The translations under genes and the position numbers were made by a program. The notes beneath the pieces were generated by a model. It had not been told where the DNA came from and searched no databases. It saw nothing but the letters and a program-made list of their open reading frames with translations. Shown piece after piece: positions 14,084 through 44,896 of a stretch of 64,000 nt of DNA (its first letter is position 1; each line of letters opens with the position of its first letter). The DNA is from Thermoanaerobaculia bacterium. GTDB lineage: Bacteria; Acidobacteriota; Thermoanaerobaculia; Multivoradales; JAHEKO01. The stretch spans positions 82,451 to 146,450 of the forward strand of contig JBATEX010000057.1 in the NCBI GenBank assembly GCA_049664225.1. Reading direction: 5' to 3'.

Positions 14084-14089
14084 CGTCCG

Positions 14090-14453: not shown

Positions 14454-14987
14454 CTAATCCTTACGTGCCAGAACCACAGCACCGATCATCGCCACCAGCA
14501 GAAAGAGAGACGCAATCTCGAACGGCAATAGGTACTGCTGAAAGAGCTGCCATGCGACTGCCTGAACATTGCCCACGGCCTCGCCGTCGACGCTGACAAG
14601 AGCGGCAGGCGCGAGATTGGCCGGTGAGAACTGAACCCTGGCCACCACCCAACTCACCAGTCCGATCAACATCACCGCCAGCAGCAGCGCCGCCGGCCAC
14701 TGCATGCCATAGATTTCGGCTTCCTGAATTCGGTGTAGGTTGACCAACATGATGACGAACAAGAACAGCACCATGATGCCGCCGCCGTAGACGAAGATCT
14801 GCACAACTGCCAGAAACTCCGCATGGAGCAAGAAGAACAGCGCGGCGACAGCCAGAAACGAAACCAGCAGCGCGAAAGCCGAGTACATGGGATTGCGCAG
14901 ACTGACCACCAGGATTGCAGCCAGCACGGCCAGTGTGGCAAACAGGTAGAACAGCAGCCCGGGGCCGTTGACCAGCAGGAATTCCAT
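14454..14987 (-). CDS. nuoJ: NADH-quinone oxidoreductase subunit J
   Basis: 177-aa membrane protein at the conserved operon position, with the NuoJ-like segment FLAVVQIFVYGGGIMVLFLFVIML. Confidence 0.88.
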   Translation of the reverse strand: MEFLLVNGPGLLFYLFATLAVLAAILVVSLRNPMYSAFALLVSFLAVAALFFLLHAEFLAVVQIFVYGGGIMVLFLFVIMLVNLHRIQEAEIYGMQWPAALLLAVMLIGLVSWVVARVQFSPANLAPAALVSVDGEAVGNVQAVAWQLFQQYLLPFEIASLFLLVAMIGAVVLARKD

Positions 14988-15007
14988 CTCAGACGCTCAT
15001 CTCTCGA

Positions 15008-15487
15008 TCAGACGACCTCTTCATCGGTATAGGCCGGGCGGACTTTCCAGTCCTCCAGTTCCCGCTTGTCCACGTACAGATTCTGCCACCGTTCATAACT
15101 CGCCAATTCGTAGGTCTTGCTCGTCAACCAGATCGATTTCGGGTTGGTGGGGCAGGCCTCTTCGCACAGGCCGCAGAACATGCACCGCTGGATGTCGATG
15201 TCGAAGCGATCCAGTAGCTTTTCCTTCTTCTCCGTCTCCGGGTTCACTTCCTGGTGCCAATCGATGTAGATGATGTCGATGGGGCAGTCCCGGGCACAGA
15301 GAGTGCACTTGATACAGCGTTCTTCGTCGAGCCGAAACATGCCACGGAAACGGTGTGCCGGCTCCCGGCGCTCTTCCGGATACTGAACCGTCACCTTCCT
15401 CTTCAGCAAGTGCCGGAAGGTGATGCCCAGGCCTGAGAACAGGTCCAGCAGCATGATCTTGTCCAGGAATCGCTTGATCCAGCTCAT
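15008..15487 (-). CDS. nuoI: NADH-quinone oxidoreductase subunit I (2x[4Fe-4S] ferredoxin-type)
   Basis: Two CxxCxxCxxxCP motifs are present (CIKCTLCARDCP, CMFCGLCEEACP). The ATG at 15487 (MSWIKRFLDK...) follows the nuoH stop, and the track N-terminal extension overlaps nuoH. Confidence 0.9.
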   Translation of the reverse strand: MSWIKRFLDKIMLLDLFSGLGITFRHLLKRKVTVQYPEERREPAHRFRGMFRLDEERCIKCTLCARDCPIDIIYIDWHQEVNPETEKKEKLLDRFDIDIQRCMFCGLCEEACPTNPKSIWLTSKTYELASYERWQNLYVDKRELEDWKVRPAYTDEEVV

Positions 15488-15495
15488 ACGTAAGC

Positions 15496-16578
15496 CTAGA
15501 TGAGGACCTTCCAGAGACCAGTTGCCACGACAGCCAGCAACGCGGTGGGAATCAACCACTTCCAACCGAGATCCATCAACTGGTCGAAGCGGTACCTCGG
15601 GAAAGTCCCGCGGAACCAGATATAGACGAACAGGAAGCTGAGAAGCTTGATCAGGAACCACAGGAATCCGGCCAGGCCCGCCGGCAGGAACGCCAAATCG
15701 AGAAACGACAACCACCCAACACTCGGGAAAGGCCGCAACCAACCGCCCAGGAACATGGTTACCGCGACAGCCGAGATCACGATCATGTTGGCGTACTCGC
15801 CCAGAAAGAACAGAGCGAATCGCATGCCGCTGTACTCCGTGTGGAATCCGGCCACCAGCTCGGATTCGGCCTCCGGCAAATCGAAGGGGTTGCGGTTGGA
15901 TTCAGCTACTCCAGCCACGAAGTAGATGAAGAACGCCAGAAGACCGAAGGGAAAGAACCCGAAGATGAACCATCGACCCTGGGTCAGCTGAGCCTCGACG
16001 ATTCCGACCAGCGAGAGGGTACCGGCCATCAGCACGGGTACGACCAGTGAGAAGCCCTGCGGGACCTCGTACGAGATCATCTGGGCGGCCGCTCGAAGCC
16101 CGCCCAACATGGAGAACTTGTTGTTGGAGGCCCAGCCTCCGAGGATCAGCCCGTACACTCCGATCGAAGCTATGGCAACGACCAGCAGTAGCCCTGCATT
16201 GACGTCGGTGATGAACCAACTGGGAATCGTGCCTTCGCCCGATGGCGGCCCATAGGGAATCACCGACAGGATGATCAGAGCGGGTCCGACGACCAGGCAC
16301 GGAGCCAGGACGTACGCCCACTTGACGGCACGATTCGGGATCACGTCCTCCTTGCCGAGGAGTTTTGCGACGTCGGCGATGGGTTGAAACAGGCCCCACG
16401 GCCCGACGCGATTCGGCCCGGTCCGGACTTGGAGGAAGCCCAGGATCTTGCGCTCGGCGAAGGTGGTATAGGCAATGATCGTCAGCACGACGATGATCGC
16501 CGCAATGATCTTGACCAGCGGCACCACCGCGTAGGTGAACAGGGTCTCGCCAAAAAACTCGACCATCAGACTCTCCAC
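15496..16578 (-). CDS. nuoH: NADH-quinone oxidoreductase subunit H
   Basis: 360-aa membrane protein. The segments AERKILGFLQVRTGPNRVGPWGLFQPIADV and FDLPEAESELVAGFHTEYSG are canonical NuoH motifs. Confidence 0.92.
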   Translation of the reverse strand: MESLMVEFFGETLFTYAVVPLVKIIAAIIVVLTIIAYTTFAERKILGFLQVRTGPNRVGPWGLFQPIADVAKLLGKEDVIPNRAVKWAYVLAPCLVVGPALIILSVIPYGPPSGEGTIPSWFITDVNAGLLLVVAIASIGVYGLILGGWASNNKFSMLGGLRAAAQMISYEVPQGFSLVVPVLMAGTLSLVGIVEAQLTQGRWFIFGFFPFGLLAFFIYFVAGVAESNRNPFDLPEAESELVAGFHTEYSGMRFALFFLGEYANMIVISAVAVTMFLGGWLRPFPSVGWLSFLDLAFLPAGLAGFLWFLIKLLSFLFVYIWFRGTFPRYRFDQLMDLGWKWLIPTALLAVVATGLWKVLI

Positions 16579-32310: not shown

Positions 32311-32403
32311 GCCCTCAAAGGCCAGCCGAAGGTACGCCGGCTGCCTCAACCCCCAAGCCCTCAGAGATCGGCCGGAAGGCTCGCCCGGCCGCCTCAACCC
32401 CTC
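32311..32403 (-). repeat. Two tandem REP-like hairpin units (32311-32362 full; 32363-32403 shorter, with a compensated stem)
   Basis: Unit 1 hairpin is cagccg-aaggtacgc-cggctg and unit 2 hairpin is cggccgg-aaggctcgc-ccggccg. Both are followed by cctcaaccCC. Unit 2 ends at the stop codon of the vWA gene. Confidence 0.85.
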
Positions 32404-33419
32404 TAGGGTCTCGTGCTGTTCAGCCCGACGAAGGTACCGCCGTTGCGGTGGCAGAGGATGCGCATCAGGGTAGCGAAGCGCACGCCCGTGGAGTCGGAGA
32501 CGCCAGAGACGGAGAACATGACTGGGAAGCCGACCGCGTGAATTCGGACCAGGCGGTTTCCCTTGGAGTCGCGTCGATTGATTCGGTCCACTGACGACAC
32601 GACATCGTCGATCGAGCGACCGGTGAACTCGTCACCAAAGACATAGATACTGATCTTCTTGTCCGGCGCGACGAAGGTGCGAATGGCTCTGGTAATGCCC
32701 TCCACCGGGCTACTGTTGCTGAAGACGCTCCAGGTCCGCAGTCGATCCAGAATGACCTTCCGCCTACCAGGAGTATCGGGGATCCACTTGCCAGCGTAGC
32801 TGGAGAACATGTACTGCCCCATGTCGTTCATGATCTGGATGCCCTTGACTTTTGGGTGGGCGTCCAGAACCTGGGTCATCTTCCGCATCACTGCCGGCCA
32901 CGCGTACGTGAACATGCTGCCCGAGGTGTCGATCACGAAAATGATGTACTCGCTGTCCACCGGGATTCCGCCCACCAACTGCTGTTCGACCTGCCGAGGC
33001 CGCTCCTCGCTCTGCTGCTGCAATCGCTGCATCTCTACGGTCAGCTTCTGCTGTGCCGCCAACAGTCGACCTTCGATGATGTCCTGAACCTCGGACTCTT
33101 GGGCCGAGGCAGCGAACTCGCCCTGGATTCGGGACAGATCGCCCTTCAGCCGAGCGATGAGCTCGCGCTCCTTCGAGAGCTGCTGTCGTCGGCTTATGAG
33201 ACTGCGGTTGAGAACTTCCGTCTCACCCCGGATCTCGTACAGCTCTTGCTCGAGTTTCTCCACGAGTCCGTCCAGATTGATCCTCGCCTGCTCCAGCGCC
33301 CGTGGCTCGCCGATCTTGGTGAGCACCAGAAGCAGTACGATCGCTCCGAAGCCGCAGCAGATCGCGTCGAGGAACGAGAGGCTGAAGCCCTCGGGAACAC
33401 CTCGGCGTCGGCCTCTCAT
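32403..33419 (-). CDS. ExbD/TolR-like TM helix + coiled coil + von Willebrand factor A (vWA) domain protein (paralogue 2)
   Basis: N-terminus MRGRRRGVPEGFSLSFLDAICCGFGAIVLLLVL, then about 110 aa of heptad-rich helix, then a vWA domain with MIDAS VIDTSGSM. Its start overlaps the upstream stop in an ATGA. Confidence 0.8.
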   Translation of the reverse strand: MRGRRRGVPEGFSLSFLDAICCGFGAIVLLLVLTKIGEPRALEQARINLDGLVEKLEQELYEIRGETEVLNRSLISRRQQLSKERELIARLKGDLSRIQGEFAASAQESEVQDIIEGRLLAAQQKLTVEMQRLQQQSEERPRQVEQQLVGGIPVDSEYIIFVIDTSGSMFTYAWPAVMRKMTQVLDAHPKVKGIQIMNDMGQYMFSSYAGKWIPDTPGRRKVILDRLRTWSVFSNSSPVEGITRAIRTFVAPDKKISIYVFGDEFTGRSIDDVVSSVDRINRRDSKGNRLVRIHAVGFPVMFSVSGVSDSTGVRFATLMRILCHRNGGTFVGLNSTRP

Positions 33420-34510
33420 GGCCAGTCTCCCGAGGGACTCATGAACGAGCCTCGAGTAGCCATGGCCAAGCGCCAGAAGGCACTCGGCGCCTGGGGGTCA
33501 CCTTCCATGGGAAACAGGATCACATTGACAGGAAAGCCCCGTGGAAGCTCCTCGACCGCCTTGTTGTAGAGCTTCATCCGCTCGCGTGCCGAGATGGTCG
33601 TCGAGCGCGGGCTGGCCTTGCCCTGAGTTGGCAGACCATCGACCAGAAGGATCACGTTGTCGGGGGCCGGTTGCAAGCCCCGGATCGCGGTGAAGGCGCG
33701 GTAGAGATTGGTGCCCTTTTCAGGCGCCACCCGAGATAGCCTCTCTACCGCATCGTCGAGGACTTCCTTGTTACCGCCGTCGAGCCACTGGCCGTCGCTG
33801 CCAGGGACAATGGATCCTGCTGCATCGTTGAACGTGTAGATCTGAAACCGACTGCTCTGCGGAATCTGGGTCGTGACCCAGTCCACGGTCGCGACGGCTT
33901 GACGCCACTTCTCCGCCCGAGTTCTGCGGGCAGCGGGAAGGTTGCGTCGCCGGATGATGTTGACGATGGTCTCGTCCAACATGCTCGCCGAGGCATCGAC
34001 GAGGATCAAGATCCTCTGCCCCCCCACCTTGAGGCCGGTGAGGTACTGGCGGTCGCCGTCACCGATGAAGGATCGCAAACGATCCCCTTGTGGATCTTCT
34101 TCCTCGGGTACGCCAGCCGACAGCCTTCGATTGCTTTCCTCCAAGGACTTCAGATCTGCCATCAGTCGATTGACATGCTCCTCCTGGGCCAGGGTGGTGT
34201 TCTCATAGGTCGCAAGCTCGACCTGAAGGTCCTCGATGTTCTCGATGATCTGCCGTGAGAGCCCTCTTGCCTCTGCCTTCCGCTGGTCCACCTGCCGAAG
34301 TGAGTTACGGACCTCGACCAGGTCCTTCTGGCCCTCGAGGACCTCCTGCTCGAGGCGATCCACCTCGGCCTTCAGATCTCCGGTCACGCGATCCGCCCGT
34401 GTGCCGACGGCCGCGTTGATGACCATGAAGAACAGCACCACGGCCCCGAAGCCGCAGGTCATGGCGTCCAGGAAGGAGAGACTGAAGACGTTGGTGGTGC
34501 GCCGCCGCAT
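33416..34510 (-). CDS. ExbD/TolR-like TM helix + coiled coil + vWA domain protein (paralogue 1)
   Basis: From the ATG at 34510: MRRRTTNVFSLSFLDAMTCGFGAVVLFFMV, followed by a coiled coil and a vWA domain with MIDAS LVDASASM. The track start at 34528 is an upstream TTG. Confidence 0.8.
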   Translation of the reverse strand: MRRRTTNVFSLSFLDAMTCGFGAVVLFFMVINAAVGTRADRVTGDLKAEVDRLEQEVLEGQKDLVEVRNSLRQVDQRKAEARGLSRQIIENIEDLQVELATYENTTLAQEEHVNRLMADLKSLEESNRRLSAGVPEEEDPQGDRLRSFIGDGDRQYLTGLKVGGQRILILVDASASMLDETIVNIIRRRNLPAARRTRAEKWRQAVATVDWVTTQIPQSSRFQIYTFNDAAGSIVPGSDGQWLDGGNKEVLDDAVERLSRVAPEKGTNLYRAFTAIRGLQPAPDNVILLVDGLPTQGKASPRSTTISARERMKLYNKAVEELPRGFPVNVILFPMEGDPQAPSAFWRLAMATRGSFMSPSGDWP

Positions 34511-34514
34511 GGCT

Positions 34515-35936
34515 CTACTCCACGGCAATCAGATGCAGCTCGATCCCAGGTGCTCCCAGGCGCAGTCGGTCACCGGCCGAAAGTTCTGCCCTACCTTCGA
34601 TACGGCTGCCGTTGAGATAGCTTCCGTAGGTGCTGTGGTCCTCGACTATCACCTCGTCGCCCTGACGCCTGAGCGAACAGTGACGCCGGGAGACTCCCGC
34701 CGTCTCTCCGGTGAGATTGACTCCTTTCGCCCCGCTGGGTATGGCGACGCCAAGCAATAGAGGGTCTCTGTCGATTGGGTGGGCTACTCCTTCGTATAGA
34801 AGATGAGTAGGGGGCTTTTTCTTCGTCCCCAACGCGGCCACAGGTGCTTCTGTAGGTGATTCCGGCGCGGCGACGGGCCTGCCGCCATGCGACTCGACCG
34901 GTACCGCGGCGACAAAGTCCACTTCAGGATCCCCAGCGCGAGCCAGGAGGTGCTGCAGCCGGAGGGCGCCGGCAGCGGCGGCGCCCGGCGCTAGGACCAC
35001 GGCCTCCGAGCCCACCGCCTCTTCGAGCTCTGACTGGAATCCGGGCAGCTTCGAGAGAGTCTGGGTGAGCAGCAGGGCCGGCCGGCTGCCTGTCCCAGCG
35101 ATGGCACGAGCCAGAGTCACAATCGCCTGATATGAAGCTCGAGCAGCACCCTGGATGTCATCAGCTGAGATCTCGGCAGCATGAGCCTTGTCTCGATGCT
35201 CCAGCGTCAGGAGGGCAAATCCATCTCGACCGATCTCTTCGATCCAACCCGGCAGCCGGTCGTAGAGATCCTGTTCGGTCTCCCCGTGGTGAAAGGGATC
35301 GAATCGGGTCTGCTGCACAAAACGACTGGCGATCAGTTTGGCCCAGACGTCCATCAACTTCGACAGGCCTGTGGATAACTCGCTCTCGACCCGCTGCCTC
35401 GCCAAGGTCCCGGTCCGCCCCAATTCGGTGACCACCGCTCGCTGCAGCAACAAATCGAGATGCAAGGCGCGGTCGGCCTCGGTCGCAGCCATGCTGGCCA
35501 CCACGGCGGCATCCGCGATGCCGGCAATCGGCATGCCGCAAGCTCGGCCGATTCCGAGAAGCAATCCGAGCTGCCGTTTCGAGTACATACCCGGGACGGT
35601 GAGCACGACAGCCTCGACACCCGCAACCGCGCCGGAATCCATGCTTCCCTGGACCTTCTTCCAAACCTCGGTGAGGTGGGCGTGAACGAGATCCGCGTTT
35701 CTCAACTCGCGAGGAAAGGGTCGGCCCAGAGGCTCGGTGTCGAGTCGATCCCAGAATCGGTTCGCCACCCATCTCGGCTTCAAACGGGCTCGGCTGAAGG
35801 CTTCCCTGCCCACGAGGATTCGACTCCCATCGAGCAGCGCAAACCCCGGACTCTGGTCCTGCCAATGCAGATCGACACCAGCCGCGACGACTCCAGCATC
35901 GTTCAACTCGACCGCAACCGTGGTCATATCTCTCAC
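34515..35936 (-). CDS. Cytoplasmic Hsp70/actin-fold (degenerate) protein with C-terminal FHA domain
   Basis: AVVLTVPGMYSKRQLGLLLGIGRACGMPIAGIADAAVVASMA parallels Hsp70 AVITVPAYFND.QRQATKDAG.IAGL.V.RIINEPTAAA. The C-terminus GVSRRHCSLRRQGDEVIVEDHSTYGSYLNGSRI is FHA. The start is the GTG at 35936 or the ATG at 35927. Confidence 0.75.
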   Translation of the reverse strand: MRDMTTVAVELNDAGVVAAGVDLHWQDQSPGFALLDGSRILVGREAFSRARLKPRWVANRFWDRLDTEPLGRPFPRELRNADLVHAHLTEVWKKVQGSMDSGAVAGVEAVVLTVPGMYSKRQLGLLLGIGRACGMPIAGIADAAVVASMAATEADRALHLDLLLQRAVVTELGRTGTLARQRVESELSTGLSKLMDVWAKLIASRFVQQTRFDPFHHGETEQDLYDRLPGWIEEIGRDGFALLTLEHRDKAHAAEISADDIQGAARASYQAIVTLARAIAGTGSRPALLLTQTLSKLPGFQSELEEAVGSEAVVLAPGAAAAGALRLQHLLARAGDPEVDFVAAVPVESHGGRPVAAPESPTEAPVAALGTKKKPPTHLLYEGVAHPIDRDPLLLGVAIPSGAKGVNLTGETAGVSRRHCSLRRQGDEVIVEDHSTYGSYLNGSRIEGRAELSAGDRLRLGAPGIELHLIAVE

Positions 35937-36754
35937 CCGGGCAGTGTCGACGAGGTCGCTTGAACCTGCAAATGTGCGATCAGATGCCGGTCCAGATAGG
36001 TCTCGGTGTCGAGCACCAGCCTGTCCTGGTGAAGCTGCAATTGATGCAACAGAAACATGAGCACGATGCTGATCAGCAGCGCGATGAAGGTGGAATTGAA
36101 GGCCACGCCGAGGCTCTGGGTGACCCCGGCGATGTCGCCCTCCACCGCCTTGTGTGCCTGCCCCAGGGCTTCACCGATGCCCCTCACAGTACCCAGGAAT
36201 CCGATGGAGGGAATGGCCCAGGCGATGTAACGCACCATGGAGAGCTCCGACTCGAGCCTTTCGGACTCCGCCTCGCAGACCGCATGCGACGTCGTCGAGG
36301 CGTTCTGGATGTCTCGAGTGGCGCTGAAACGGTCGAGAGCCGCCATCAGCGCCCTGGGCAGAAGCGCGCGCTGATCGGACGCGGGTAGCGACTGGATCTG
36401 GCGAGCGTACTCGCGAGCGTCCTCCGGCAGGATCTTCGTGCCCTCTGACACCGGTACCAGGTCCTCCTGCAGCAGCTTTCGCTCTTTGGCGGCCTGAGCT
36501 CCTTTCAGAGCCATGATGGCGAGCGCCCAAAGCGCCAGCACGAAGCAGGCCTCCTGCTCGAAGTCCCGGATGATCACCCAGATGGACCGCTCCTGCACGT
36601 AGTCCGGGTCAGCCTGCATCTCAGCTGTCTGCTCCGCCAGGACGGTGTCCGCCCTGGGGCGTACGACCGCCACGTAGAAGGCGTGAACCACGATCAATGC
36701 CACGATCAGGGACAGCGCCTGGTAGACGAACTCGACTGGATAGTCTTTCTTCAT
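35933..36754 (-). CDS. MotA/TolQ/ExbB-family proton channel protein
   Basis: 273 aa with 3-4 TM helices. The C-terminal signature is IPSIGFLGTVRGIGEALGQ...SLGVAFNSTFIALLISIVLMFL (compare TolQ/ExbB GLLGTV.G...AL..T..GL..AIP). Confidence 0.85.
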   Translation of the reverse strand: MKKDYPVEFVYQALSLIVALIVVHAFYVAVVRPRADTVLAEQTAEMQADPDYVQERSIWVIIRDFEQEACFVLALWALAIMALKGAQAAKERKLLQEDLVPVSEGTKILPEDAREYARQIQSLPASDQRALLPRALMAALDRFSATRDIQNASTTSHAVCEAESERLESELSMVRYIAWAIPSIGFLGTVRGIGEALGQAHKAVEGDIAGVTQSLGVAFNSTFIALLISIVLMFLLHQLQLHQDRLVLDTETYLDRHLIAHLQVQATSSTLPG

Positions 36755-36768
36755 GGCAGCTTGAGCCC

Positions 36769-37005
36769 TCAGATATCGACTGGAAAGGAAATGGCGCTGT
36801 CGGCCGGTAGCCGCTCCGAGGGTATGAAGGTCTCCAGGGGTTGCCCTCCGCCCTCTTCGGCCTCTTCGGCCTGCGGACTCCCTCCCGCACCCTGCTCAGC
36901 CGCCTCGGAAGCCTGGTCTCTCTCGGCCGAGCCTGGAGACCCGAAGGCGATCAGGGCTCCGGCGACCAACAGCAGGACAAGTATCGAGAATCGGATCAAT
37001 CTCAT
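36769..37005 (-). CDS. Small secreted acidic protein (78 aa, hypothetical)
   Basis: Signal peptide MRLIRFSILVLLLVAGALIAFG, with an SD (GGGAG) 8 nt upstream. It is wedged between the FGE-domain gene and the MotA-like gene. The C-terminus reads ERLPADSAISFPVDI. Confidence 0.6.
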   Translation of the reverse strand: MRLIRFSILVLLLVAGALIAFGSPGSAERDQASEAAEQGAGGSPQAEEAEEGGGQPLETFIPSERLPADSAISFPVDI

Positions 37006-37032
37006 GGCAAGCTCCCTAGAATGTTCGGCCCG

Positions 37033-39486
37033 TCATTCGGCATAGCGGGCGATTCTGAAGCCCACATCCGGACGCGGCTTGTTTCCGTAGTCGCGAAAAC
37101 TGAGACGCAGCTCCGTCACTGTGGAGTGCATCCAGCTGGAACCTCGGATGACATGATAGTCGCCACTCTCCGGTCCGAGGGGATCACGTGTCGGTGGTCC
37201 GGAGTTGCTGGGTAGGATGGCATAGTAGTCGTGAGTCCACTCGGCGACGTTACCGCCCATGTTCTTCAGACCCACCGCATTGGGCCCATAGCTGTCGACC
37301 GGAGAGGTGGCAGGAAAACCATCTTCATAGTCGGACAGGGTTGCCTCCAGATTGCCTTGTGCCGAAAGGTCAGCGTAGTTGCCAGACCCGGTGGCAACGG
37401 GCAGAGATCCACCCCAGGGGTATTTCAATCCGCCGCCACCGGCGAATCGAGCCGCCCAGGCCCATTCTGCCTCGGTAGGAAGTCGAAACCCGTTGCTCAA
37501 GGGGACGACGCCTTGCAGCTTGCCGCTACGAAAGGCATAGGCTGGCTCGAGCGAGGCCTTTTCACTGAGCCAGTTGCAGTACCGGGCCGCGTCCTCCCAG
37601 CTGACATTCACCACGGGATGGAGGTCATTCTCGAGACTCGCCCGTCCCGCCCTTCCCGATCGATGCTTCTCCATGAACTGCCGGAACTCCCGATTGGAGA
37701 CTTCTCGAGTCGCCATGTAGAAGGCCCTGGTGAGCTCGACCTGGCGGAGAGTCTCGTTAGCCCTCCGACCGGGCTCGCGCCTGGGTGCTCCGACGCGAAA
37801 GCGACCGGGCTCGATGAGTCTGAGCTCCTGGCCCTGTGGCCCCTGGATGACCGGCGGTACTGCTGCGGCCTTGGCTTCCTGCTCGGTCAGTAGGGTGACC
37901 TCCAGGGCCTGCGAGACGCCCGGGGTGGGAGTCAGGGTCTGGGTCTGGGAGATGAATCCCTGCTTCCTGATCTCGATCTGCTGCGGAACCGCTTGCAGAC
38001 GCAGGGTCTGATTCGCGGAGCCGCGGAGCTCGCCGTTGACAAAGAGCTCCGCCCCCGCGGGTCGGGTGATGATCTCGACCTCTCCGAGCCGCTCGACCAG
38101 GGCAATGACTTCGGACCGGTTCTCACCCGAGGCGACAGCCAACTCGAGGGTGCGAGTCTCGTAACCCCGTTTCGAAAAGCTCACCGCGTAGAGCCGCCCC
38201 GGAGCCATGGTGACCTCGAGCGGCGTCTGACCACGGTACTCGCCATCGACGGTCACGGTCGCTCCGCTTGGCTCGCTGCTCAGTGTCAGGCTGCCATCGT
38301 TGGGCAGTAGACGGACTGTCGGCAATTCGAGCGTCTCTTCGGCCTTTACCTGAATCCTGCCGCGGTGGGGCTTGAAGCCTGCAAGACTGATCTCTAGAGC
38401 TCGATTGCCTTCGAGAACCTCGGTGGTCAGAGGAGTGCGACCAACGAGTGAGCCGTCGATTCTCACGGCGGCGGCAGCCGGTTGGCTGCTGAGGGTCACA
38501 GTGGCCCAGAGGGGCTGCAACTCCACTCCGAGCGTCTGCGTCGCACCGCCCCCTGCGATGGCTATCTCGGTCGCGAAGTCTCGGTAGCCCTCCGCCTGAA
38601 TCAGCAGGCTGTGCTCGCCTGGCGTCAGCTCGAGGGGCTCGAGCGGCCACACACCCTGCTTCTCGCCGTCTACCCACAGCGTCGCCGCTGCCTCGACATC
38701 CAACTTCACGGCCAACAGCCCTGGCAGCCTCTCGAGCTGGAACTCGAAGACCTGCGTACTGGCCTGCGTCACCTCGATGGGGCTTCTCAGCTGCCGATAC
38801 CCCTTGCTTTCAGCGACCACCGTGTAGGTACCGGGCCGGAGAAGATACCTGCCACCGATCTGGAGTCGAAGCAAGCCACCTTCCACCTGCAGAGACTCCG
38901 GTGTAGGTTCGACCCGAACTTCCACTGGTCGGGCGGAGAAGAGGTACCAGGCAGCCATCGCAAGCAGGACCAGTACCAGCCAAAGAGCCACAGTGGCCCG
39001 CCGTGGGGCCCACCGCCTGCGGCGACCGGCCTCGAGCGAGGCCGGCGTGAACTCCACGGGGTGAATCCTCTGACTACCTGCGCCTGCGTCTTGGCTACGC
39101 GCGGAAGCCGCGGCCATGACTACTGCCGGGGGCCTGGTGCTGTCGTCGGACTCCTCGTGTCGAACCTGTAGGACGGTTCCACTTCCATCCGAGGAGAACA
39201 CGAGCTCTGCTTCGCCAACACGCAGGACGTCTCCGTGACGCAACCACTGAGACGTGGTCACGGGTCCGCCGTTGCAGAAGACCGCCTCGCCGCCAGGAAT
39301 GGGCTGCAGAAAGACCTCAAGCTCGGCGATCCCCAGATGGGCGATCGGACCGAGAACAGGCCGTCCCGGAATCTCGATATCAGCGTCGGGACCACCAATC
39401 GTCAGGGGAAAATCCCCCTCGCCGTACTGCCGCGCGGTTCCTTTCGCCCGCAGCTCAAAGGTGAGATTCAAATCTGCTCCTCGCAC
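37033..39486 (-). CDS. FHA - TM - five PEGA repeats - formylglycine-generating-enzyme/sulfatase-modifying (FGE-sulfatase, SUMF1-like) domain protein
   Basis: N-terminal FHA (GDFPLTIGG...FCNGGPV...GDVLRVGEAELVF) is followed by a TM helix (VALWLVLVLLAMAAWYLF) and five repeats of the PEGA type. The C-terminal domain reads YMATREVSNREF...VVNVSWEDAARYCNWLS...LPTEAEWAWAAR...GNVAEWTHD...IRGSSW...GFRIARY. The start codon is GTG. Confidence 0.85.
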   Translation of the reverse strand: MRGADLNLTFELRAKGTARQYGEGDFPLTIGGPDADIEIPGRPVLGPIAHLGIAELEVFLQPIPGGEAVFCNGGPVTTSQWLRHGDVLRVGEAELVFSSDGSGTVLQVRHEESDDSTRPPAVVMAAASARSQDAGAGSQRIHPVEFTPASLEAGRRRRWAPRRATVALWLVLVLLAMAAWYLFSARPVEVRVEPTPESLQVEGGLLRLQIGGRYLLRPGTYTVVAESKGYRQLRSPIEVTQASTQVFEFQLERLPGLLAVKLDVEAAATLWVDGEKQGVWPLEPLELTPGEHSLLIQAEGYRDFATEIAIAGGGATQTLGVELQPLWATVTLSSQPAAAAVRIDGSLVGRTPLTTEVLEGNRALEISLAGFKPHRGRIQVKAEETLELPTVRLLPNDGSLTLSSEPSGATVTVDGEYRGQTPLEVTMAPGRLYAVSFSKRGYETRTLELAVASGENRSEVIALVERLGEVEIITRPAGAELFVNGELRGSANQTLRLQAVPQQIEIRKQGFISQTQTLTPTPGVSQALEVTLLTEQEAKAAAVPPVIQGPQGQELRLIEPGRFRVGAPRREPGRRANETLRQVELTRAFYMATREVSNREFRQFMEKHRSGRAGRASLENDLHPVVNVSWEDAARYCNWLSEKASLEPAYAFRSGKLQGVVPLSNGFRLPTEAEWAWAARFAGGGGLKYPWGGSLPVATGSGNYADLSAQGNLEATLSDYEDGFPATSPVDSYGPNAVGLKNMGGNVAEWTHDYYAILPSNSGPPTRDPLGPESGDYHVIRGSSWMHSTVTELRLSFRDYGNKPRPDVGFRIARYAE

Positions 39487-41453
39487 CGTACTTCGAGCGG
39501 CTTCGAGCTCTGGTTCGGGGAGACCGTGAGCCGTCGCCTGACATCCCGGTAGCCCGCCCGGCTGCCGACGACCGTATAGGTTCCGGGCCGAAGGTCGAGG
39601 ACCTGCTGGGTGAATCTCCCCAAACGACCGACGCGGTAGACCGTCACTTCAGTGAGGTTGTCGGACACCAGTTCGACCCTGATCGGCGTTGTCGCTACGG
39701 CAAGCCGCTCGGCCAGACTGTCGATCTGCCGACGCAGCACCGGACCCGAAGGCTGCGTTGACCTGGCCTCACTCAAGACCTGCTCGGCACTCTCCAAGAC
39801 ATCATCGTTGGACAGCCTCTCGGAATGGCCGATGTGATCCTCCAGCTGCTCGGCGAGCTGGGATCGAACCTCGGCTCTGGCTTTACCCTCGCGGGCAAAT
39901 CGAATCGAGGGGTCGAGGCCCAAGGCAGCATCGTACTCCTGCAGAGCCGCATCCCAATCTTCCTTCCGCTCGAATTCCAGGGCCCGTGAGCGATGCTCGG
40001 AGATCGCGGCGAGACGCAAGCTCTCCTCAGCTCGTCCCAGGCCATCCAAGGCCTCCGGAGAGCCTGGCGAGAGCACCAGTGCGCGCTGGAAGGCCTGCTT
40101 GGCGATTGCGGAATCACCAGCCTCCAGCGCTGTCAGGCCCTTTGACATGGCCTGCCGGAATTCGGCATCCGATCTCGGCTCGAACTTGGGCACGGGCTCG
40201 ACACTGGGCGGTCCGGTCTCCTGCCGCGCTTGCACCACAGCGCCAGACTCGACGACCCGATCTACGGTTGACTCGGAGCCGGCTTCCTGAGGGACGGACT
40301 CCGATAGGACCTCGAGATCCTCTCGATCCTCAGACTCGGCCGACGACCGATGGATCGGGACCGCCCGGCTCTCTTCGGCCTCCGAGGCTTCGCCAATCGG
40401 ACTGCTATCGCTCACCGCAGCGCTTTCAGCCTCACTTCTCCGCTGCACCCAGCCGGGCAGGAACACGAAGACAGCCAAGACGAGCACCCCGAGCGCCGCA
40501 AAGACCGCGACCGTCATCCAGAGCCGGATCTTGCTGTCAGAGGCCTGGCCCGCAACCTGGCGGGCCCGGGAACGAGGAGCCTCTATCTTCGGGGGTGGTG
40601 ACAGCCGCACCGAGCGCGACCGAATCTCGGGCGCTCGAGTCTCGGTGACCGAGAGCTCTTCACCGATTTTCTCAAGTTCCTCTCGCACCAGAGCCATGTC
40701 GGCTGGACGGTCGGCCGGGGATTTGGCCAGCATTTCGCCAATCAGATCCCGGAGGCGCGCTGGAGCCGTACTGCTGGGGTCGATGGGTTCCGGGGTCTCT
40801 TGCCGAATCCGTTCTTCGTCGGCATTGGGCCAAAAAGGAGGATGACCCGAGATCAGGTGATACGCCAGCGTCCCCAGCCCGTAGATGTCGTCGGAGGGCT
40901 GTGGAGGTAGTCCCGCCAATTGCTGTGGGCTCATGCTGTATCGCGACCCACCCCCCTCGAGGAGCAGGTCTCCCTCGCCCGGGTGCAAGGCTCCAGCGAT
41001 GCCGAAGTCCATCAGCCGCGGCTGCCCAGTCCGATCCAAGAGGATGTTGCTGGCTTTGACATCCCGGTGCACCACACCGGCCTGATGCGCGTGGTCGAGG
41101 GCTTCAGCCAGGGGCACGAGAGCTTTGACGATGTCCTCGATTGCACCCCCTATCAGGGACTCGATGGAGCCCCCATCGACGTGCTCCATGGTGATGAAGC
41201 TCACGCCGTCGCACTGATGGAAGTCGAAGACGCGGATGATGTTGGGGTGGGACAACCGGCGGGCGTTCCGACACTCGTGGCGAAGAAGCTCGATCGTCGC
41301 CGGCGAGGCATCGGTCGGTACGACCTTAGTGACCACCTCCTGGTCGAGTTGACGATCGCGTGCCAACCAGACCTCGCCCATACCGCCCCGTCCCAAGGGG
41401 CGGAGCAGGGTGAAGCGGGAGCAGAGGCTGGTGCCGCTTTCGAGATGGAGCAT
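39468..41453 (-). CDS. Ser/Thr protein kinase - TM - TPR-like - PEGA-like domain protein
   Basis: From the ATG at 41453, the Hanks kinase motifs are GRGGMGEVWLA, HRDVKASNILL, DFGIA and SPQQ. The TM helix is MTVAVFAALGVLVLAVFVFL. The extracytoplasmic part has TPR-like helices and the C-terminal segment LRPGTYTVVGSRAGYRDV. Confidence 0.88.
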   Translation of the reverse strand: MLHLESGTSLCSRFTLLRPLGRGGMGEVWLARDRQLDQEVVTKVVPTDASPATIELLRHECRNARRLSHPNIIRVFDFHQCDGVSFITMEHVDGGSIESLIGGAIEDIVKALVPLAEALDHAHQAGVVHRDVKASNILLDRTGQPRLMDFGIAGALHPGEGDLLLEGGGSRYSMSPQQLAGLPPQPSDDIYGLGTLAYHLISGHPPFWPNADEERIRQETPEPIDPSSTAPARLRDLIGEMLAKSPADRPADMALVREELEKIGEELSVTETRAPEIRSRSVRLSPPPKIEAPRSRARQVAGQASDSKIRLWMTVAVFAALGVLVLAVFVFLPGWVQRRSEAESAAVSDSSPIGEASEAEESRAVPIHRSSAESEDREDLEVLSESVPQEAGSESTVDRVVESGAVVQARQETGPPSVEPVPKFEPRSDAEFRQAMSKGLTALEAGDSAIAKQAFQRALVLSPGSPEALDGLGRAEESLRLAAISEHRSRALEFERKEDWDAALQEYDAALGLDPSIRFAREGKARAEVRSQLAEQLEDHIGHSERLSNDDVLESAEQVLSEARSTQPSGPVLRRQIDSLAERLAVATTPIRVELVSDNLTEVTVYRVGRLGRFTQQVLDLRPGTYTVVGSRAGYRDVRRRLTVSPNQSSKPLEVRCEEQI

Positions 41454-41473
41454 ACGTCGGTGCACCGCTGGAT

Positions 41474-42712
41474 TCAGTGGTCCACCGAATTCCCTGCGGT
41501 TTGCCCTGCCTCGACGTTGGGGTCGACAGGTAGTCCGGTCTCCTCGGCATAGATCTTTCGCAGCATCTCCCGCCATTCGGCGAACTGACCCTCCATGGTG
41601 CCACTGAGCCGCAATGTCTCGCCTTCGACCTCGACGACGAGTGGAGCGACTTCCACATCCAGGGAGCCACCCAGCTCACGCAGGGCCTCCACATGCATCT
41701 TGGCCTCCTGTGACTTCGCCATGCCACTCTGAATGGCTGCCATGCCACCAATCACGGCCACATCTCGCGCCACCCTTCCCGCAGAGCCGTTCGTTGGGGC
41801 GACCACGGCACCGAAGATCGCCAGCGCACCCACGATCTTTTGCATCCGGGCCTGGCGACGAAGCTTCTCCAAAGCCAGCTGCTCCTCGTAGCTGAACGAG
41901 CGCCAGTTGTCATAGGGCTCTTCCATCGACGTACTGAAGGTGGCGTAGTACTCGTTCAGGGTGTCGATGAATGTGTAGTCGCGCTCTCTGATCTCGGCGA
42001 TGCGTTGCATCATGGAGTCATCCTCGGCAGGGAGGTGCTCCAACTGGTAGCGCTCCTTGCGATCGAGGCTGAGATAGTCCTCGAAAGCCACCGGCGCCAG
42101 GTCGGCAGCGAACCGCAGGTCGGCGACATTGCGCAGCTTCATCAGCTCCGCTTGCTTCCTCTTCTGTCGTTCGACCAGCATATCGTTGGCGATGGCGGAA
42201 TATAGAGCATGGAAGGGGTCCTTCTTCTTGACTTGCTCCGGGGAGTACACCAGGACGTCGGCCTCCTGCTTGTAGCGTTTCTCGAGCCAGACCTCCCCGG
42301 CTGCGTCCCGCACCTGGACCTCCACCACCAGGTCCTTGCCTGTGGATTTGATGACCCCGCCAGACACTGTCACTTCGGCACTGGATGTGCCTTCCGGCAT
42401 CACTCGGACTGCACCCCAATTACCCGTCGACTGCAAGGTCTGCTTGAGCTGATAGGGGATGAACCGCGCCTCGGCCTTTCGGACCTCCGGGAAGACTCCC
42501 GCCTTCTCCGCTTTGGTCACAGGCACGCTCGGGTCCATCAGACCCGGATCGAAGACCTCGATGGTCACGTCCAGCAGAGCCTCATCTGGAACTTCAGTGG
42601 CGGCCTGGATCAGAGTCACCGTGCTCACGGCGCTCGACGAGCCCGTCGAGGCGCATCCCGCAACCAGCAGGGTCGCCAAGGCCAGGCCGGCTATTTCTCT
42701 TTGCATCTTCAT
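41474..42712 (-). CDS. Lipoprotein, hypothetical (412 aa)
   Basis: Lipobox LLVAGC after a signal peptide. No family was recognised. A hydrophobic/Gly-rich segment (IVGALAIFGAVVAP...VIGGMAAIQSG) lies near the C-terminus. Confidence 0.7.
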   Translation of the reverse strand: MKMQREIAGLALATLLVAGCASTGSSSAVSTVTLIQAATEVPDEALLDVTIEVFDPGLMDPSVPVTKAEKAGVFPEVRKAEARFIPYQLKQTLQSTGNWGAVRVMPEGTSSAEVTVSGGVIKSTGKDLVVEVQVRDAAGEVWLEKRYKQEADVLVYSPEQVKKKDPFHALYSAIANDMLVERQKRKQAELMKLRNVADLRFAADLAPVAFEDYLSLDRKERYQLEHLPAEDDSMMQRIAEIRERDYTFIDTLNEYYATFSTSMEEPYDNWRSFSYEEQLALEKLRRQARMQKIVGALAIFGAVVAPTNGSAGRVARDVAVIGGMAAIQSGMAKSQEAKMHVEALRELGGSLDVEVAPLVVEVEGETLRLSGTMEGQFAEWREMLRKIYAEETGLPVDPNVEAGQTAGNSVDH

Positions 42713-42727
42713 CCTGGACCACCCCGG

Positions 42728-43615
42728 TCAGCCGCTCTTCTTCGCAGCCGCTTTGTATTCACGGTATTCATCCCATAGCTTCTCACGCAACTCGGGATCG
42801 TCTTCGTTCATCGCCGCCTCGCGGAGCTGTCGCGCCACGATGTCGTCGTCGCTGCCGTCGGGAATATCGGGAGGAACCCTGCCACCACCACTCCCACCAC
42901 CGGCCGATCCGGACCGCGCAGAGCTTCCTTCGCCCGACTCCTCTTCACTGGTGCCCTCCCCGGCAGCAGACTCCGACGCAGCACTGCCGGTTTGCTCTTC
43001 TCCCGTTCCGCCGCCCCCTACTGGATCTCCAAACCCGGTGTCCTCGTCTCCGAAAGCGCCGCTTCCGCCCGAAGACCCCGAGGCAACGTCGGCAGCAGCC
43101 TCCGCCTCGGCTCTCTCTCGGGCAGCCGCCTGTTGCTCACTGGCCAGCATTCCGTCGACTTTCTCCAAAGAAGCAATCAACTCCTGGTCCAGCTTCGATG
43201 CTGGCTCACCTCCGGTCAAGGGACCAGCCGGCGGGCCTGCTCCGCTACCCGCACTGCCCCCCTGGGTCTGGCTTTCAGCGCCCTCCGCACCCTGGGAACC
43301 GGCCTGTCCACCGGCCGACTCTTCACCCTCCCCCCCGGCGGAACCGTCCTCTCCAGAGGACTCTCCCTGCCCCTCCTGCGTACCCGACGGTTCGCCGCCT
43401 TCGGAGCCGGCAGCACCCTCACCACCACCCTCCTGTCCCGCCTCCGACCCGCCCTCGCCACTCGCCTTGTCCTCGGGTGCGGATGAAGTCGTGGTCTCCG
43501 GCTCGGGGCGCGCAGATGGGGTTGTCGACGTCTGACTGCTGGCGCAAGCCACCACCAGCGCCAGGGCGATAGGAGGAACGACTCGCTGCAGCCATTGTTG
43601 AATTCTGAAGTCCAT
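42728..43615 (-). CDS. Acidic Gly/Glu/Ser-rich lipoprotein with conserved-looking helical C-terminus (hypothetical)
   Basis: Signal peptide plus lipobox (LALVVAC), with an SD (AAGGAAG) upstream of the ATG at 43615. A low-complexity acidic region of about 200 aa follows. The C-terminus reads PDIPDGSDDDIVARQLREAAMNEDDPELREKLWDEYREYK. Confidence 0.7.
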   Translation of the reverse strand: MDFRIQQWLQRVVPPIALALVVACASSQTSTTPSARPEPETTTSSAPEDKASGEGGSEAGQEGGGEGAAGSEGGEPSGTQEGQGESSGEDGSAGGEGEESAGGQAGSQGAEGAESQTQGGSAGSGAGPPAGPLTGGEPASKLDQELIASLEKVDGMLASEQQAAARERAEAEAAADVASGSSGGSGAFGDEDTGFGDPVGGGGTGEEQTGSAASESAAGEGTSEEESGEGSSARSGSAGGGSGGGRVPPDIPDGSDDDIVARQLREAAMNEDDPELREKLWDEYREYKAAAKKSG

Positions 43616-43831: not shown

Positions 43832-44896
43832 TCACACCCAGAGCGTGAGACCCGACAGGAGAAGGAACGCCGCGAGGTAAATCCAGCGCCCCCAGTGATC
43901 GATCCTGTGAGCTTGTGCCTCCTTGCCCTGCTTGGCAAGCCTGGCAGTCACGATCACTTCGCCCAAAGCCGCAAAGACCAGCAGCGTCGTACCCAAGAGG
44001 AACTGGTCGGCGCGAGTCATGTAGGCCACATTGGGCAGCGCACTCCGCATGCTGAAGCGAAAGGCGATCAGGGAAAAGACCGCGGCCGTCGCGATACCGA
44101 CCTGCGGGGGCACGACCGATGGATCGATCCAAAACACAGACCAGGCCATCAGCACGATGAGGACCAGGGGCACCATCATGGTGAGGCCGAAGTAGGACGA
44201 CTGTCGTCGGGCTTCGAGAAAGAAACTCGCACCAGCGAATTGACCTTGTATTGCAGGCAGCTGCACCGCTTCGATCCTGGGCTCACCCTCTTCGATCACC
44301 CAGCCTGTGACCGAGAAATCACCCCGAATTCCCGTCAACTCCTCATTGAGGACGAAGCTGATCTCCTCCGGGCCGTAGCGGTAGGCCACGACATGAATCG
44401 GCAGGACCTGCGTATCGAACGGGAACTCCTTAAGCTCCAGTCTCGTTGACAGGGTTGCTTGCAGCCTCTGTGCGTAGGACACCAGACCGTCCGGCTTCAC
44501 CTGCACGACATTGGGCAGAAGGGCCTCGACTTCGCGCTGATTCAGCGCCCCGAGCTCCGCATGCCAGACCTCTTCCAAAGGCAAGACCAACTCCTCGAGA
44601 CCCACTTCCTCGGCCGAGAACGCCAGTCGCGGGTCTCGCCAGCGAAGGGTCATCGCCAGGTCGACCTCGAAGGTCTGCGTAGCGTCGTCGATCGCAATGA
44701 CATCGAGAACGTAGACGCCGATCTCCGCTCGAGTGGGGGTGCCTCCGGGATCGGGCCGAACGCGGATCCACTGTTTGGCCTCGAGATCCGTGTACGGTTC
44801 GGTCGCTTGCAGAGTCGGGAGATACCCCAGGCTACCGAGCAGTAGCCAGCCGATGGCCCATCCAAGCTGATTTCGACCTCTCGCGCTTCCTGACAT
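43832..44896 (-). CDS. Prokaryotic pentameric ligand-gated ion channel (Cys-loop receptor superfamily, GLIC/ELIC-like)
   Basis: Signal peptide and a beta-rich extracellular domain of about 200 aa, with WRDPRL and the Cys-loop-equivalent FPFDTQ. Four TM helices follow (M1 YFGLTMMVPLVLIVLMAWSVFW; M2 VGIATAAVFSLIAF; M3; C-terminal M4), with a short M3-M4 loop. Confidence 0.85.
   Translation of the reverse strand: MSGSARGRNQLGWAIGWLLLGSLGYLPTLQATEPYTDLEAKQWIRVRPDPGGTPTRAEIGVYVLDVIAIDDATQTFEVDLAMTLRWRDPRLAFSAEEVGLEELVLPLEEVWHAELGALNQREVEALLPNVVQVKPDGLVSYAQRLQATLSTRLELKEFPFDTQVLPIHVVAYRYGPEEISFVLNEELTGIRGDFSVTGWVIEEGEPRIEAVQLPAIQGQFAGASFFLEARRQSSYFGLTMMVPLVLIVLMAWSVFWIDPSVVPPQVGIATAAVFSLIAFRFSMRSALPNVAYMTRADQFLLGTTLLVFAALGEVIVTARLAKQGKEAQAHRIDHWGRWIYLAAFLLLSGLTLWV

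Follow-up and report, generated by a model that had tools for sequence, protein, structure and literature searches.

The MotA/TolQ-like protein encoded in the 64,000-nucleotide stretch of DNA analyzed here (the window) and two neighboring vWA proteins, vWA1 and vWA2, probably work together as one ion-driven motor, of the kind represented by MotAB, ExbBD and TolQR. The initial annotation had proposed that the vWA pair takes the place of the usual ExbD/TolR/MotB subunit. The replacement itself was favored by an invariant Asp, a predicted N-in orientation, the pore threonines of the channel protein and the lack of any ExbD/TolR gene in the window or in the related loci, whereas the sequence homology claimed along with it found no statistical support. 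We document here the domain layout, the conservation, the gene order and the predicted topology of the system; its functional reading rests on context, topology and conservation, since homology of the transmembrane (TM) segment to ExbD/TolR was without support.

Two coupled vWA paralogues

The genes for vWA1 (364 aa; 33416..34510, minus strand) and vWA2 (338 aa; 32403..33419, minus strand) encode translationally coupled paralogues, the stop codon of the former overlapping the start codon of the latter in the sequence ATGA. Both open reading frames, together with the N-termini quoted for them in the initial annotation, were present at these positions. According to the N-termini of homologues, vWA1 starts at the ATG at 34510, which gives the 364-aa product, and not at the upstream TTG at 34528. 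The two proteins showed the same layout: behind a basic N-tail and a single TM helix comes a heptad helix of about 95 residues, which a linker connects to a vWA domain bearing the DxSxS start of the MIDAS, the MIDAS of vWA1 being complete. When the two families were compared with hhalign, they aligned end to end (probability 99.9%, E 1.8e-33, 321 columns). The alignment was gapless across the TM segment and most of the stalk, and the first indel appeared near the C-terminal end of the stalk, about 10 residues before the end of the vWA1 helix. The two stalks are therefore closely matched in length.

The AlphaFold2 model of vWA1 (mean pLDDT of 86) contained a single continuous helix from residue 8 to residue 131 (pLDDT of 84 to 94), a disordered linker at 132-165 and an alpha/beta domain at 166-364. 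The predicted periplasmic helical stalk corresponds to residues 36-131 (34118..34405, minus strand). Its hydrophobic periodicity was 3.5 residues, as expected for heptads, and not 3.6, in both proteins; in vWA1 the spectral power reached 1.83 at a period of 3.5, compared to 0.26 at 3.6. The coiled coil of about 110 residues proposed earlier was thus upheld as a heptad helix in both proteins but not in its length, which was slightly shorter, at about 95 residues past the membrane.

The vWA domain of vWA1 occupies residues 166-364 (33419..34015, minus strand), with MIDAS residues D172, S174, S176, T267 and D291. A Foldseek search with the model gave a best E value of 3.6e-8, and 49 of the best 50 matches were entries described as vWA/integrin-I-type domains or as proteins carrying one, the single exception being a parvovirus capsid at rank 4. 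Conservation of the MIDAS was 100% for D172, S174, S176 and D291 and 97% for T267. For its part, vWA2 kept D164, S166, S168 and D263 in 100% of the sequences, and the Thr position in just 51%. Pfam and PDB profile searches gave no match for a vWA domain in vWA2, and its vWA fold is assigned by its homology to vWA1 alone in the hhalign comparison. The intact MIDAS start attributed to both proteins was confirmed, with DxSxS at 100% in each paralogue and the fold of vWA1 backed by AlphaFold2 and Foldseek.

The transmembrane helix and the neighboring channel protein

The TM helix of vWA1 spans V8-V35 (34406..34489, minus strand; motif NVFSLSFLDAMTCGFGAVV) and bears Asp15 (codon 34466-34468), and that of vWA2 spans F12-L33 (33321..33386, minus strand; motif FSLSFLDAICCGFGAIV) and bears Asp18 (codon 33366-33368). 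In both proteins the Asp sits in the sequence xSFLDxxxCGFGA, and the N-terminal motif that they have in common is far beyond chance. The residue was kept in 84 of 84 vWA1 copies and in 84 of 84 vWA2 copies. Similarly, of 104 cluster representatives with a complete N-terminus, 103 had it, with identities down to 33%; these relatives had been retrieved by a query without the TM helix, so that the count was not biased by the TM segment. The initial annotation had made its proposal depend on conservation of this Asp in orthologues, and on this point it was sustained.

The same conservation bears on an alternative in which each N-terminus is a signal peptide that is cleaved off, releasing mature coiled-coil vWA proteins that are soluble in the periplasm. 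The basic n-region and the hydrophobic stretch behind it would suit a signal peptide, as would the small residues I-N-A-A-V that come after this stretch in vWA1. However, signal peptides do not retain their individual residues, whereas those of this segment hardly vary from phylum to phylum and include a buried Asp; moreover, its hydrophobic stretch, of about 27 residues, runs on into the stalk as one helix in the model. The residue-level conservation and the continuous helix led us to reject this reading, which is left with hardly any probability.

The mean net charge of the N-tail was +2.9 in vWA1 and +2.8 in vWA2, and the mean charge of the 15 residues following the TM helix was -1.4 and -2.9, respectively. 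This distribution predicts an N-in, C-out topology, so that the stalk and the vWA domain are predicted to lie in the periplasm. The reverse topology (N-out, C-in), with a cytoplasmic vWA domain working in a phospho-signalling or chaperone module of the TerY-kinase or MoxR-vWA kind, appears very unlikely. It would fit the Ser/Thr kinase, the two FHA proteins and the Hsp70-NBD-like protein of the cluster, all of them cytoplasmic, and vWA domains do act as co-chaperones in MoxR systems (PMC7159879). Nevertheless, in the 168 sequences taken together the N-tail was strongly positive and the post-TM region negative; MoxR, DUF58 and PP2C genes were absent from the cluster, and the large periplasmic domains of other members (PEGA, FGE-sulfatase, TPR and the lipoproteins) suggest an envelope machine. 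The TerY-type version was rejected on gene content and predicted topology.

The likeness of the vWA TM segment to ExbD/TolR extends over about six residues; by eye, the Asp lies seven residues past the first hydrophobic residue of the segment both in the vWA pair and in ExbD. Five tests, which as regards B subunits covered ExbD and TolR (PF02472), placed none of this above background. An hmmsearch of all PDB sequences with a profile of 49 vWA N-termini retrieved no ExbD/TolR chain at E <= 10, its two matches being chance ones to a complex I subunit, and the isolated N-termini gave no match in Pfam. With hhalign, the single best local match to an ExbD/TolR alignment was in the Asp-Asp register, with a P value of 0.18; this test was limited by the ExbD/TolR profile, which was shallow (enterobacterial sequences only, Neff of 1.8), and a deeper profile might do better. 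Column shuffles of a BLOSUM profile-profile score gave a p value of 0.13 for the global score, of 0.52 when the core alone was compared and of 0.10 for the local score. Finally, when an ExbD/TolR TM HMM was run against 7,887 ORF translations, the first vWA N-terminus ranked 29th, with 1.2 bits. The alignment with ExbD/TolR claimed in the initial annotation was accordingly left without statistical support. With all five tests negative or non-significant, this result counts against homology but not against function, and the link between the vWA TM segment and ExbD/TolR is one of analogy.

The adjacent gene encodes a channel subunit of the MotA/TolQ/ExbB family (273 aa; 35933..36754, minus strand). 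The protein belongs to PF01618 (E 9.7e-15; 54.9 bits compared to a cut-off of 22.9), and its family profile matched TolQ with an E value of 6.6e-4; used as a single sequence against the PDB it gave no match, so the family profile was required. In this family of channels the pore is lined by threonines in the last two TM helices, T145 and T178 in TolQ and T148 and T181 in ExbB. Their counterparts T189 (36188-36190) and T222 (36089-36091), aligned to TolQ T145 and T178, were invariant. The position equivalent to TolQ Glu173 is a Val in the MotA-like family, and an invariant Arg, R191, which canonical TolQ does not have, lies two residues past the pore Thr, so that the ion path may differ from that of TolQ. 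From reading the sequence, there also appears to be an extra hydrophobic segment at about residues 68-84. No ExbD/TolR homologue was found by phmmer (E <= 1) in the window or in the 84 related loci, nor by Pfam and NCBIfam searches among the cluster proteins.

These data have to be weighed against the view that the vWA pair stays outside the channel and serves as a periplasmic scaffold or adhesin anchored in the membrane. The Asp and the CGFGA residues would then serve for heterodimer packing or for docking on the outside of another membrane protein, while the MotA-like protein would work alone or with a B subunit from another locus. We consider this arrangement unlikely, although it draws on several observations, namely, the absence of significant similarity between the TM segment and ExbD/TolR or PDB sequences, the small-residue run C-G-F-G-A, which looks like a helix-packing surface, and locus L078, which has the vWA pair without a nearby channel gene. 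On the other side, the pore threonines of the partner are invariant, the genes keep a tight order in nearly all loci, with ExbD/TolR genes in 0 of 84 of them, and a buried Asp present in both paralogues and in 103 of 104 relatives is hard to account for by packing alone. In addition, published AlphaFold3 models, discussed below, put such helices in the pore.

The gene cluster and a possible mechanism

The vWA genes lie at one end of a nine-gene cluster (32403-43615), all on the minus strand. Between the vWA pair and the channel gene is located a gene for a cytoplasmic protein with an Hsp70-NBD-like N-terminal part and a C-terminal FHA domain (34515..35936; FHA E 2.6e-12), assigned also by synteny; its family profile matched the SSB1/DnaK NBD with an E value of 1.5e-5. 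Beyond the channel gene comes a small secreted or anchored protein of 78 aa (36769..37005) with a signal-like N-terminus and an acidic low-complexity middle, which had no family match in Pfam or NCBIfam. Its extreme C-terminus is conserved as F-x-P-[ST]-E-x-[ILV]-x-A-D-x-x-[IV]-x-F-P-x-D-I, a motif present in most loci. The product of the following gene (37033..39486) starts with a weak FHA-like region and also has a TM segment, four PEGA repeats (E 1.6e-44) and a GldK/PorK-like FGE-sulfatase domain (E 1.8e-49); its match to GldK itself had an E value of 9.4e-35 but reached 120.7 bits compared to a family cut-off of 350. Next, domain matches and synteny identified a Ser/Thr protein kinase (39468..41576) that combines a TM segment with TPR repeats on the periplasmic side; its gene probably starts further downstream than the listed ATG. 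Two lipoprotein-like genes (412 aa and 295 aa; 41474..43615) of no known family stand at the head of the cluster. Elsewhere in the window, a strong AT skew at 10-16 kb was due to minus-strand genes for hydrophobic subunits of complex I and is ordinary.

The second vWA paralogue beside the channel, pointed out in the initial annotation, turned out to be a constant feature, both paralogues being present in all 84 loci. The order MotA / Hsp70-FHA / vWA1 / vWA2 was kept in Acidobacteriota, Desulfobacterota, Gammaproteobacteria, Myxococcota and Planctomycetota, and was also found in a Verrucomicrobiota genome, at 31% identity. The exception noted above, L078, comes from a Kiritimatiellae MAG, in which no channel gene was found within 5 kb upstream or 7.5 kb downstream of the vWA pair. 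A single-sequence search retrieved 1,024 cluster representatives of the vWA family at E <= 0.001, and the motif was carried by at least 575 species genomes. The family extends over at least five phyla, many of them sediment and soil lineages without cultured models.

For the vWA pair as the axle of the motor, we propose the following mechanism. Five channel subunits would surround a two-helix axle (5:2), the axle being a vWA1-vWA2 heterodimer with one Asp in each TM helix, D15 and D18. These residues would face the threonine ring formed by T189 and T222 and carry the coupling proton, and the passage of protons would set the pentamer turning against the axle. This motion would then be relayed by a heterodimeric coiled-coil stalk of about 95 residues and a flexible linker of about 34 residues to two periplasmic vWA heads, whose MIDAS metal sites would hold on to an acidic ligand presented by a partner in the periplasm or the outer membrane. 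The cluster itself offers several candidate partners, namely, the small protein with the FPxDI tail, the PEGA/FGE-sulfatase protein and the two lipoproteins. The cytoplasmic Ser/Thr kinase and the two FHA proteins would probably gate assembly or activity through phosphothreonine binding.

More tentatively, the whole cluster might constitute an undescribed phosphorylation-gated, proton-driven machine spanning the envelope, with the axle working as a metal-dependent clamp. The vWA heads might in that case seize the acidic C-terminal peptide of the small protein, or a PorK-like partner, and pull or turn it, while the cytoplasmic Hsp70-like ATPase and FHA/phosphothreonine signalling might switch the motor on and off. 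We found no description in the literature of this conserved nine-gene cluster, which extends across at least five phyla.

Comparison with known systems

Flagella, TonB-dependent import, outer-membrane maintenance, gliding, type IX secretion and Zorya phage defence all draw their power from motors of the MotAB/ExbBD/TolQR type, and each new output domain has revealed another route for energy delivery across the periplasm. If the axle reading is true, an axle that terminates in metal-dependent, integrin-like domains for binding would act directly as a mechanical clamp. The cluster would also tie such a motor to Ser/Thr-kinase/FHA signalling and to an Hsp70-like ATPase, offering experimental handles on its regulation.

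A search for anti-phage systems with PADLOC gave generic kinase matches and a weak match to ZorA (E 6.6e-4), which was confined to the shared MotA/ExbB core. Zorya (ZorAB) was ruled out on this basis and because the ZorB, ZorC and ZorD models were unmatched. BatA and BatB are likewise membrane-anchored bacterial vWA proteins, and BatB was among the best structural matches of the vWA1 model. The Bat operons (Bacteroides aerotolerance) contain MoxR and DUF58 genes and are not known to include a MotA-type channel, and Bat proteins are not known to have the Asp-bearing motif or the coiled coil. A BatA/BatB-MoxR system was rejected here, as no MoxR AAA+ or DUF58 gene was found in the window cluster or in the related loci, and the predicted topology was also against it.

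With GldLM/PorLM and the PorK/GldK ring, the system shares an axle subunit, here a putative one, with a single TM helix and a long periplasmic extension toward the outer membrane, and a GldK/PorK-like protein of FGE-sulfatase fold encoded alongside. GldL and PorL, however, are not members of PF01618, and the charge pair of GldLM consists of an Arg in GldM and a Glu in GldL, not of an axle Asp.

[quoted passage not shown] As in ExbD/TolR, each vWA protein has a short basic N-tail and one TM helix bearing the Asp close to its predicted cytoplasmic end, and the remainder is predicted to be periplasmic; the periplasmic fold of ExbD/TolR is absent, a coiled coil and a vWA domain being found instead, and no third subunit of the TonB/TolA type was recognized.

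The combination of one channel subunit with two different B-type paralogues recalls AglR-AglQ-AglS and ExbB-ExbD1-ExbD2. The Agl-Glt gliding machine also involves a membrane protein with an FHA domain, GltG, and an adhesin of the vWA type, CglB. In those systems, however, the B subunits are genuine homologues of TolR, and the vWA protein stands apart from them as an outer-membrane lipoprotein, whereas in vWA1 and vWA2 the vWA domain and the putative axle form one polypeptide.

A close counterpart has already been described. The initial annotation presented the vWA domain as a new output for this motor family, but the idea of a vWA axle is not new: it was published in 2025 as a computer prediction, with AlphaFold3 models (Mol Biol Evol 2025, msaf138, PMC12204202, section 8, Fig. 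4c-d). That work described paired TM-anchored "TPH-vWA" proteins encoded beside tolQ-like genes, with a conserved TM Asp, no tolR/exbD gene nearby and a partner with conserved threonines; in the AlphaFold3 complexes the two Asp residues were ringed by these threonines, and the description rests on structure prediction only (PMC12204202). Compared by description, our pair resembles them in being a TM-anchored heterologous vWA pair adjoining a tolQ-like gene, with a TM Asp and no tolR/exbD. The reference there is Idiomarina loihiensis, to which vWA1/vWA2 are likened here by description. TPH-vWA pairs were reported from Proteobacteria and Verrucomicrobia (PMC12204202), and the vWA1/vWA2 family occurs in both. 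While that study makes no mention of a kinase, FHA or sulfatase proteins or Acidobacteria, here such genes are conserved in the cluster and the window, by its closest named relatives, is of Acidobacteriota type.

Architecture of the vWA pair

The two paralogous vWA genes were the last of a tight minus-strand cluster running from 43615 to 32403. All homologues of vWA1 (33416-34510, minus strand; 364 aa) start at the ATG at 34510, upstream of which the mechanically called ORF begins at a TTG (34528). Its stop overlaps the start of vWA2 (32403-33419, minus strand; 338 aa) in the sequence ATGA. The N-termini quoted in the initial annotation matched the sequence exactly, with the codons for the membrane Asp at 34466-34468 in vWA1 (D15) and 33366-33368 in vWA2 (D18), both on the minus strand.

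The AlphaFold2 model of vWA1, made from 62 sequences (mean pLDDT, 86), consisted of a single unbroken helix (residues 8 to 131), a low-confidence linker (residues 132 to 165), and an alpha/beta domain (residues 166 to 364). When the model was searched with Foldseek, 49 of the 50 matches listed were vWA/integrin-I-type domains or their carriers (best E value, 3.6e-8), the odd one out being a parvovirus capsid entry; BatB and anthrax-toxin-receptor domains were among the matches. The vWA1 MIDAS was complete, its residues being 97 to 100% conserved. In vWA2, in which Pfam recognised no vWA domain, DxSxS and the last Asp were 100% conserved and the Thr position only 51%. The proposed intact MIDAS start was thus present in both paralogues. 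The vWA2 and vWA1 families aligned all the way from TM helix to C terminus (hhalign probability, 99.9%; E value, 1.8e-33), ungapped over the TM segment and most of the stalk. Since the first indel occurred only near the C-terminal end of the stalk, the stalk lengths are closely matched.

In both proteins the hydrophobic repeat of the post-membrane helix was 3.5 residues, not 3.6, as expected for a coiled coil. The heptad repeat is consistent with the coiled coil previously described, at a length of ∼95 helical residues rather than ∼110 (∼14 nm, estimated at 0.15 nm per residue). Together with the 34-residue linker, such a stalk could be long enough to bring the vWA heads across the periplasm.

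The accompanying gene cluster

The cluster, all on the minus strand, is headed by two lipoprotein-like genes that match no known family. Next come a Ser/Thr kinase that has TPR repeats as well as a TM segment, and a protein that combines a weak FHA-like N terminus and a TM segment with four PEGA repeats and an FGE-sulfatase domain (best NCBIfam match GldK/PorK, below the cut-off). A 78-aa secreted protein (36769-37005) adjoins, on the upstream side, the MotA/TolQ/ExbB-family gene (35933-36754; PF01618, E value of 9.7e-15). Between this channel gene and the vWA pair lies an Hsp70-like/FHA protein (34515-35936), whose N-terminal 340 residues matched Hsp70 nucleotide-binding domains (family profile versus SSB1, E value of 1.5e-5) and whose C-terminal end is an FHA domain. 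This fusion was kept across phyla. Its phosphate-2 motif, usually of the DLGGGTFD type, looks degenerate (LHLDLLLQRAV), which leaves it uncertain whether the protein hydrolyses ATP.

In most loci a counterpart of the small secreted protein was encoded directly upstream of the MotA-like gene. It matched nothing in Pfam or NCBIfam, and comprises a signal-like N terminus, a variable acidic spacer, and, as its only conserved part, the extreme C terminus (F-x-P-[ST]-E-x-[ILV]-x-A-D-x-x-[IV]-x-F-P-x-D-I-COOH). Speculatively, this acidic peptide is a plausible candidate MIDAS ligand. The first lipoprotein (42728-43615, minus strand), likewise of no known family, is mostly low-complexity and Gly/Ser/Glu-rich; in most loci its cross-phylum match covered the C-terminal part only (15 to 25% of the protein, DDIVARQLREAAMNEDDPELREKLWDEYREYK), with 60 to 82% identity. 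As listed, the kinase ORF extends 19 nt into the downstream gene (39468-39486) and ∼100 nt into the upstream lipoprotein gene (41474-41576); translation probably begins instead at an internal Met, e.g., MLHLESG. The make-up of this component varies, since many related loci matched the kinase domain only (about a third of the protein) and in one (L001) the match was confined to the C-terminal, non-kinase half.

The gene that immediately precedes the cluster (43832-44896, minus strand; Neur_chan_LBD plus Neur_chan_memb) encodes a prokaryotic pentameric ligand-gated ion channel homologue, which recurs as a neighbour in the most closely related genome (left end of L002). Elsewhere in the window, plus-strand AT skew was strongly positive at 10000-16000 (0.20 to 0.26), coinciding with minus-strand complex I membrane subunit genes (NuoL/M/N-type, NuoH), and is attributable to the ordinary codon composition of very hydrophobic proteins.

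Distribution and conservation of the membrane Asp

Among scored candidates, vWA1 was represented by more than 8,000 clusters at 90% identity, the named ones being from Acidobacteriota/Vicinamibacteria. Screening a single genome for each species yielded no fewer than 575 loci, and the 80 best of them came from Acidobacteriota, Desulfobacterota, Gammaproteobacteria (Woeseiaceae, Steroidobacteraceae, and others), Myxococcales, Isosphaeraceae, and Kiritimatiellae. vWA1 and vWA2 were present together in all 84 loci compared. In essentially every locus with sufficient flank the gene order was that of the window, taking in the lipoproteins, kinase domain, PEGA/FGE protein, channel gene, Hsp70-like gene, and both vWA genes. 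The exceptions were a locus lacking the Hsp70-like gene (L059), one in which the cluster's upstream half is inverted and lies downstream (L048), and a Kiritimatiellae MAG (L078, 4950-7045) in which the pair has unrelated neighbours and no channel gene nearby.

Because these loci had been picked via the TM motif, an unbiased search was run with vWA1 lacking its TM helix against 1.84 billion cluster representatives, giving 1,024 matches at an E value of ≤0.001 (271 at ≤1e-30). Among the top 150 matches, 104 had intact N termini, with identities down to 33%, and 103 of these carried the Asp four residues before a CGFGA-type motif; the sole relative without it has a scrambled N terminus. Loss of the Asp in orthologues had been named beforehand as a possible refutation, and the residue was in fact kept. 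Two of the most distant members, one from a Puniceicoccaceae (Verrucomicrobiota) genome, retain the core order, with the PEGA/FGE gene first and then the MotA-like gene, a ∼500-aa gene, vWA1, and vWA2. In the most distant clusters (31 to 33% identity), vWA2 is followed by an additional 229-aa gene that belongs to no known family (L085, 12252-12941; L086, 12135-12824), a position occupied in the window by a gamma-glutamyltranspeptidase.

Probable motor role and relation to known systems

By eye, NVFSLSFLDAM resembles DINVTPFIDVM, and, counted from the sequences, the Asp lies seven residues past the first hydrophobic residue of the segment in both the vWA family and ExbD/TolR. A profile of the vWA N termini retrieved no ExbD, TolR, or MotB chain from the PDB at an E value of ≤10, and Pfam gave no match to them. 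The sole hhalign match to the ExbD/TolR alignment had the same Asp register (P = 0.18; probability, 0.3%), column-shuffle tests gave P values of 0.13 (global) and 0.10 (best local segment), and the ExbD/TolR TM profile placed the first vWA N terminus 29th of 7,887 ORF translations. As these tests stand, weakened by a shallow ExbD/TolR profile, the resemblance is statistically not above background, and the homology previously claimed is unsupported.

The functional part of the proposal, that the pair stands in for the motor's ExbD/TolR-type subunit, fared better. T189 and T222 of the MotA-like protein did not vary among 16 diverse members of its family and correspond in the alignment to T145 and T178 of TolQ; in TolQ and ExbB these two threonines line the proton path. 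Net charge was +2.9 (vWA1) and +2.8 (vWA2) in the N-tail and −1.4 and −2.9 after the helix, which predicts an N-in, C-out topology, as for ExbD, TolR, and MotB. No cluster protein matched ExbD/TolR, nor did a search of the 64-kb window and 84 loci (each up to ∼21 kb) reveal a homologue. The vWA helices would form the proton-binding axle of the motor. This is the simplest explanation of why both paralogues have an invariant, buried Asp in their one membrane helix, next to a channel that has the corresponding threonine ring and for which there is no alternative partner. We consider this substitution reasonably likely.

Several features depart from canonical motors. The MotA-like family has Val at the position of TolQ Glu173, and an invariant Arg (GTVRGIG, residues 188 to 193) where TolQ has a Trp two residues after the pore Thr; its ion pathway may therefore differ from that of TolQ/ExbB. 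Read from its sequence, the channel protein also appears to have an extra hydrophobic segment, and the periplasmic part of the vWA pair is unrelated to ExbD, TolR, or OmpA-like domains.

The vWA axle had been presented as a new output of this motor family, a novelty pre-empted by an in silico proposal (Mol Biol Evol 2025, msaf138, PMC12204202). The TPH-vWA proteins described there, next to tolQ-like genes with no tolR/exbD in the vicinity, occur mostly in heterologous pairs, have a TolR/ExbD-like trans-pore helix with a conserved Asp, encircled by conserved threonines in AlphaFold3 models, lack the TonB/TolA SHLS motif, and were reported mainly from Proteobacteria and Verrucomicrobia. That paper makes no mention of a kinase, FHA domain, sulfatase, or Acidobacteria, and the cluster was not found described elsewhere in full-text literature searches; the vWA conflict systems surveyed in eLife in 2020 (PMC7159879) are MoxR-linked and GTPase-linked, not that of the window. 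The present analysis contributes an unbiased test of conservation, the negative results of the TM-helix homology tests, and a conserved neighbourhood of nine genes that includes Ser/Thr-kinase/FHA and Hsp70-like components. The window genes fit every stated feature of the TPH-vWA systems, matched by description to a reference from Idiomarina, and the system is an Acidobacteriota-type example of a kind already proposed in silico.
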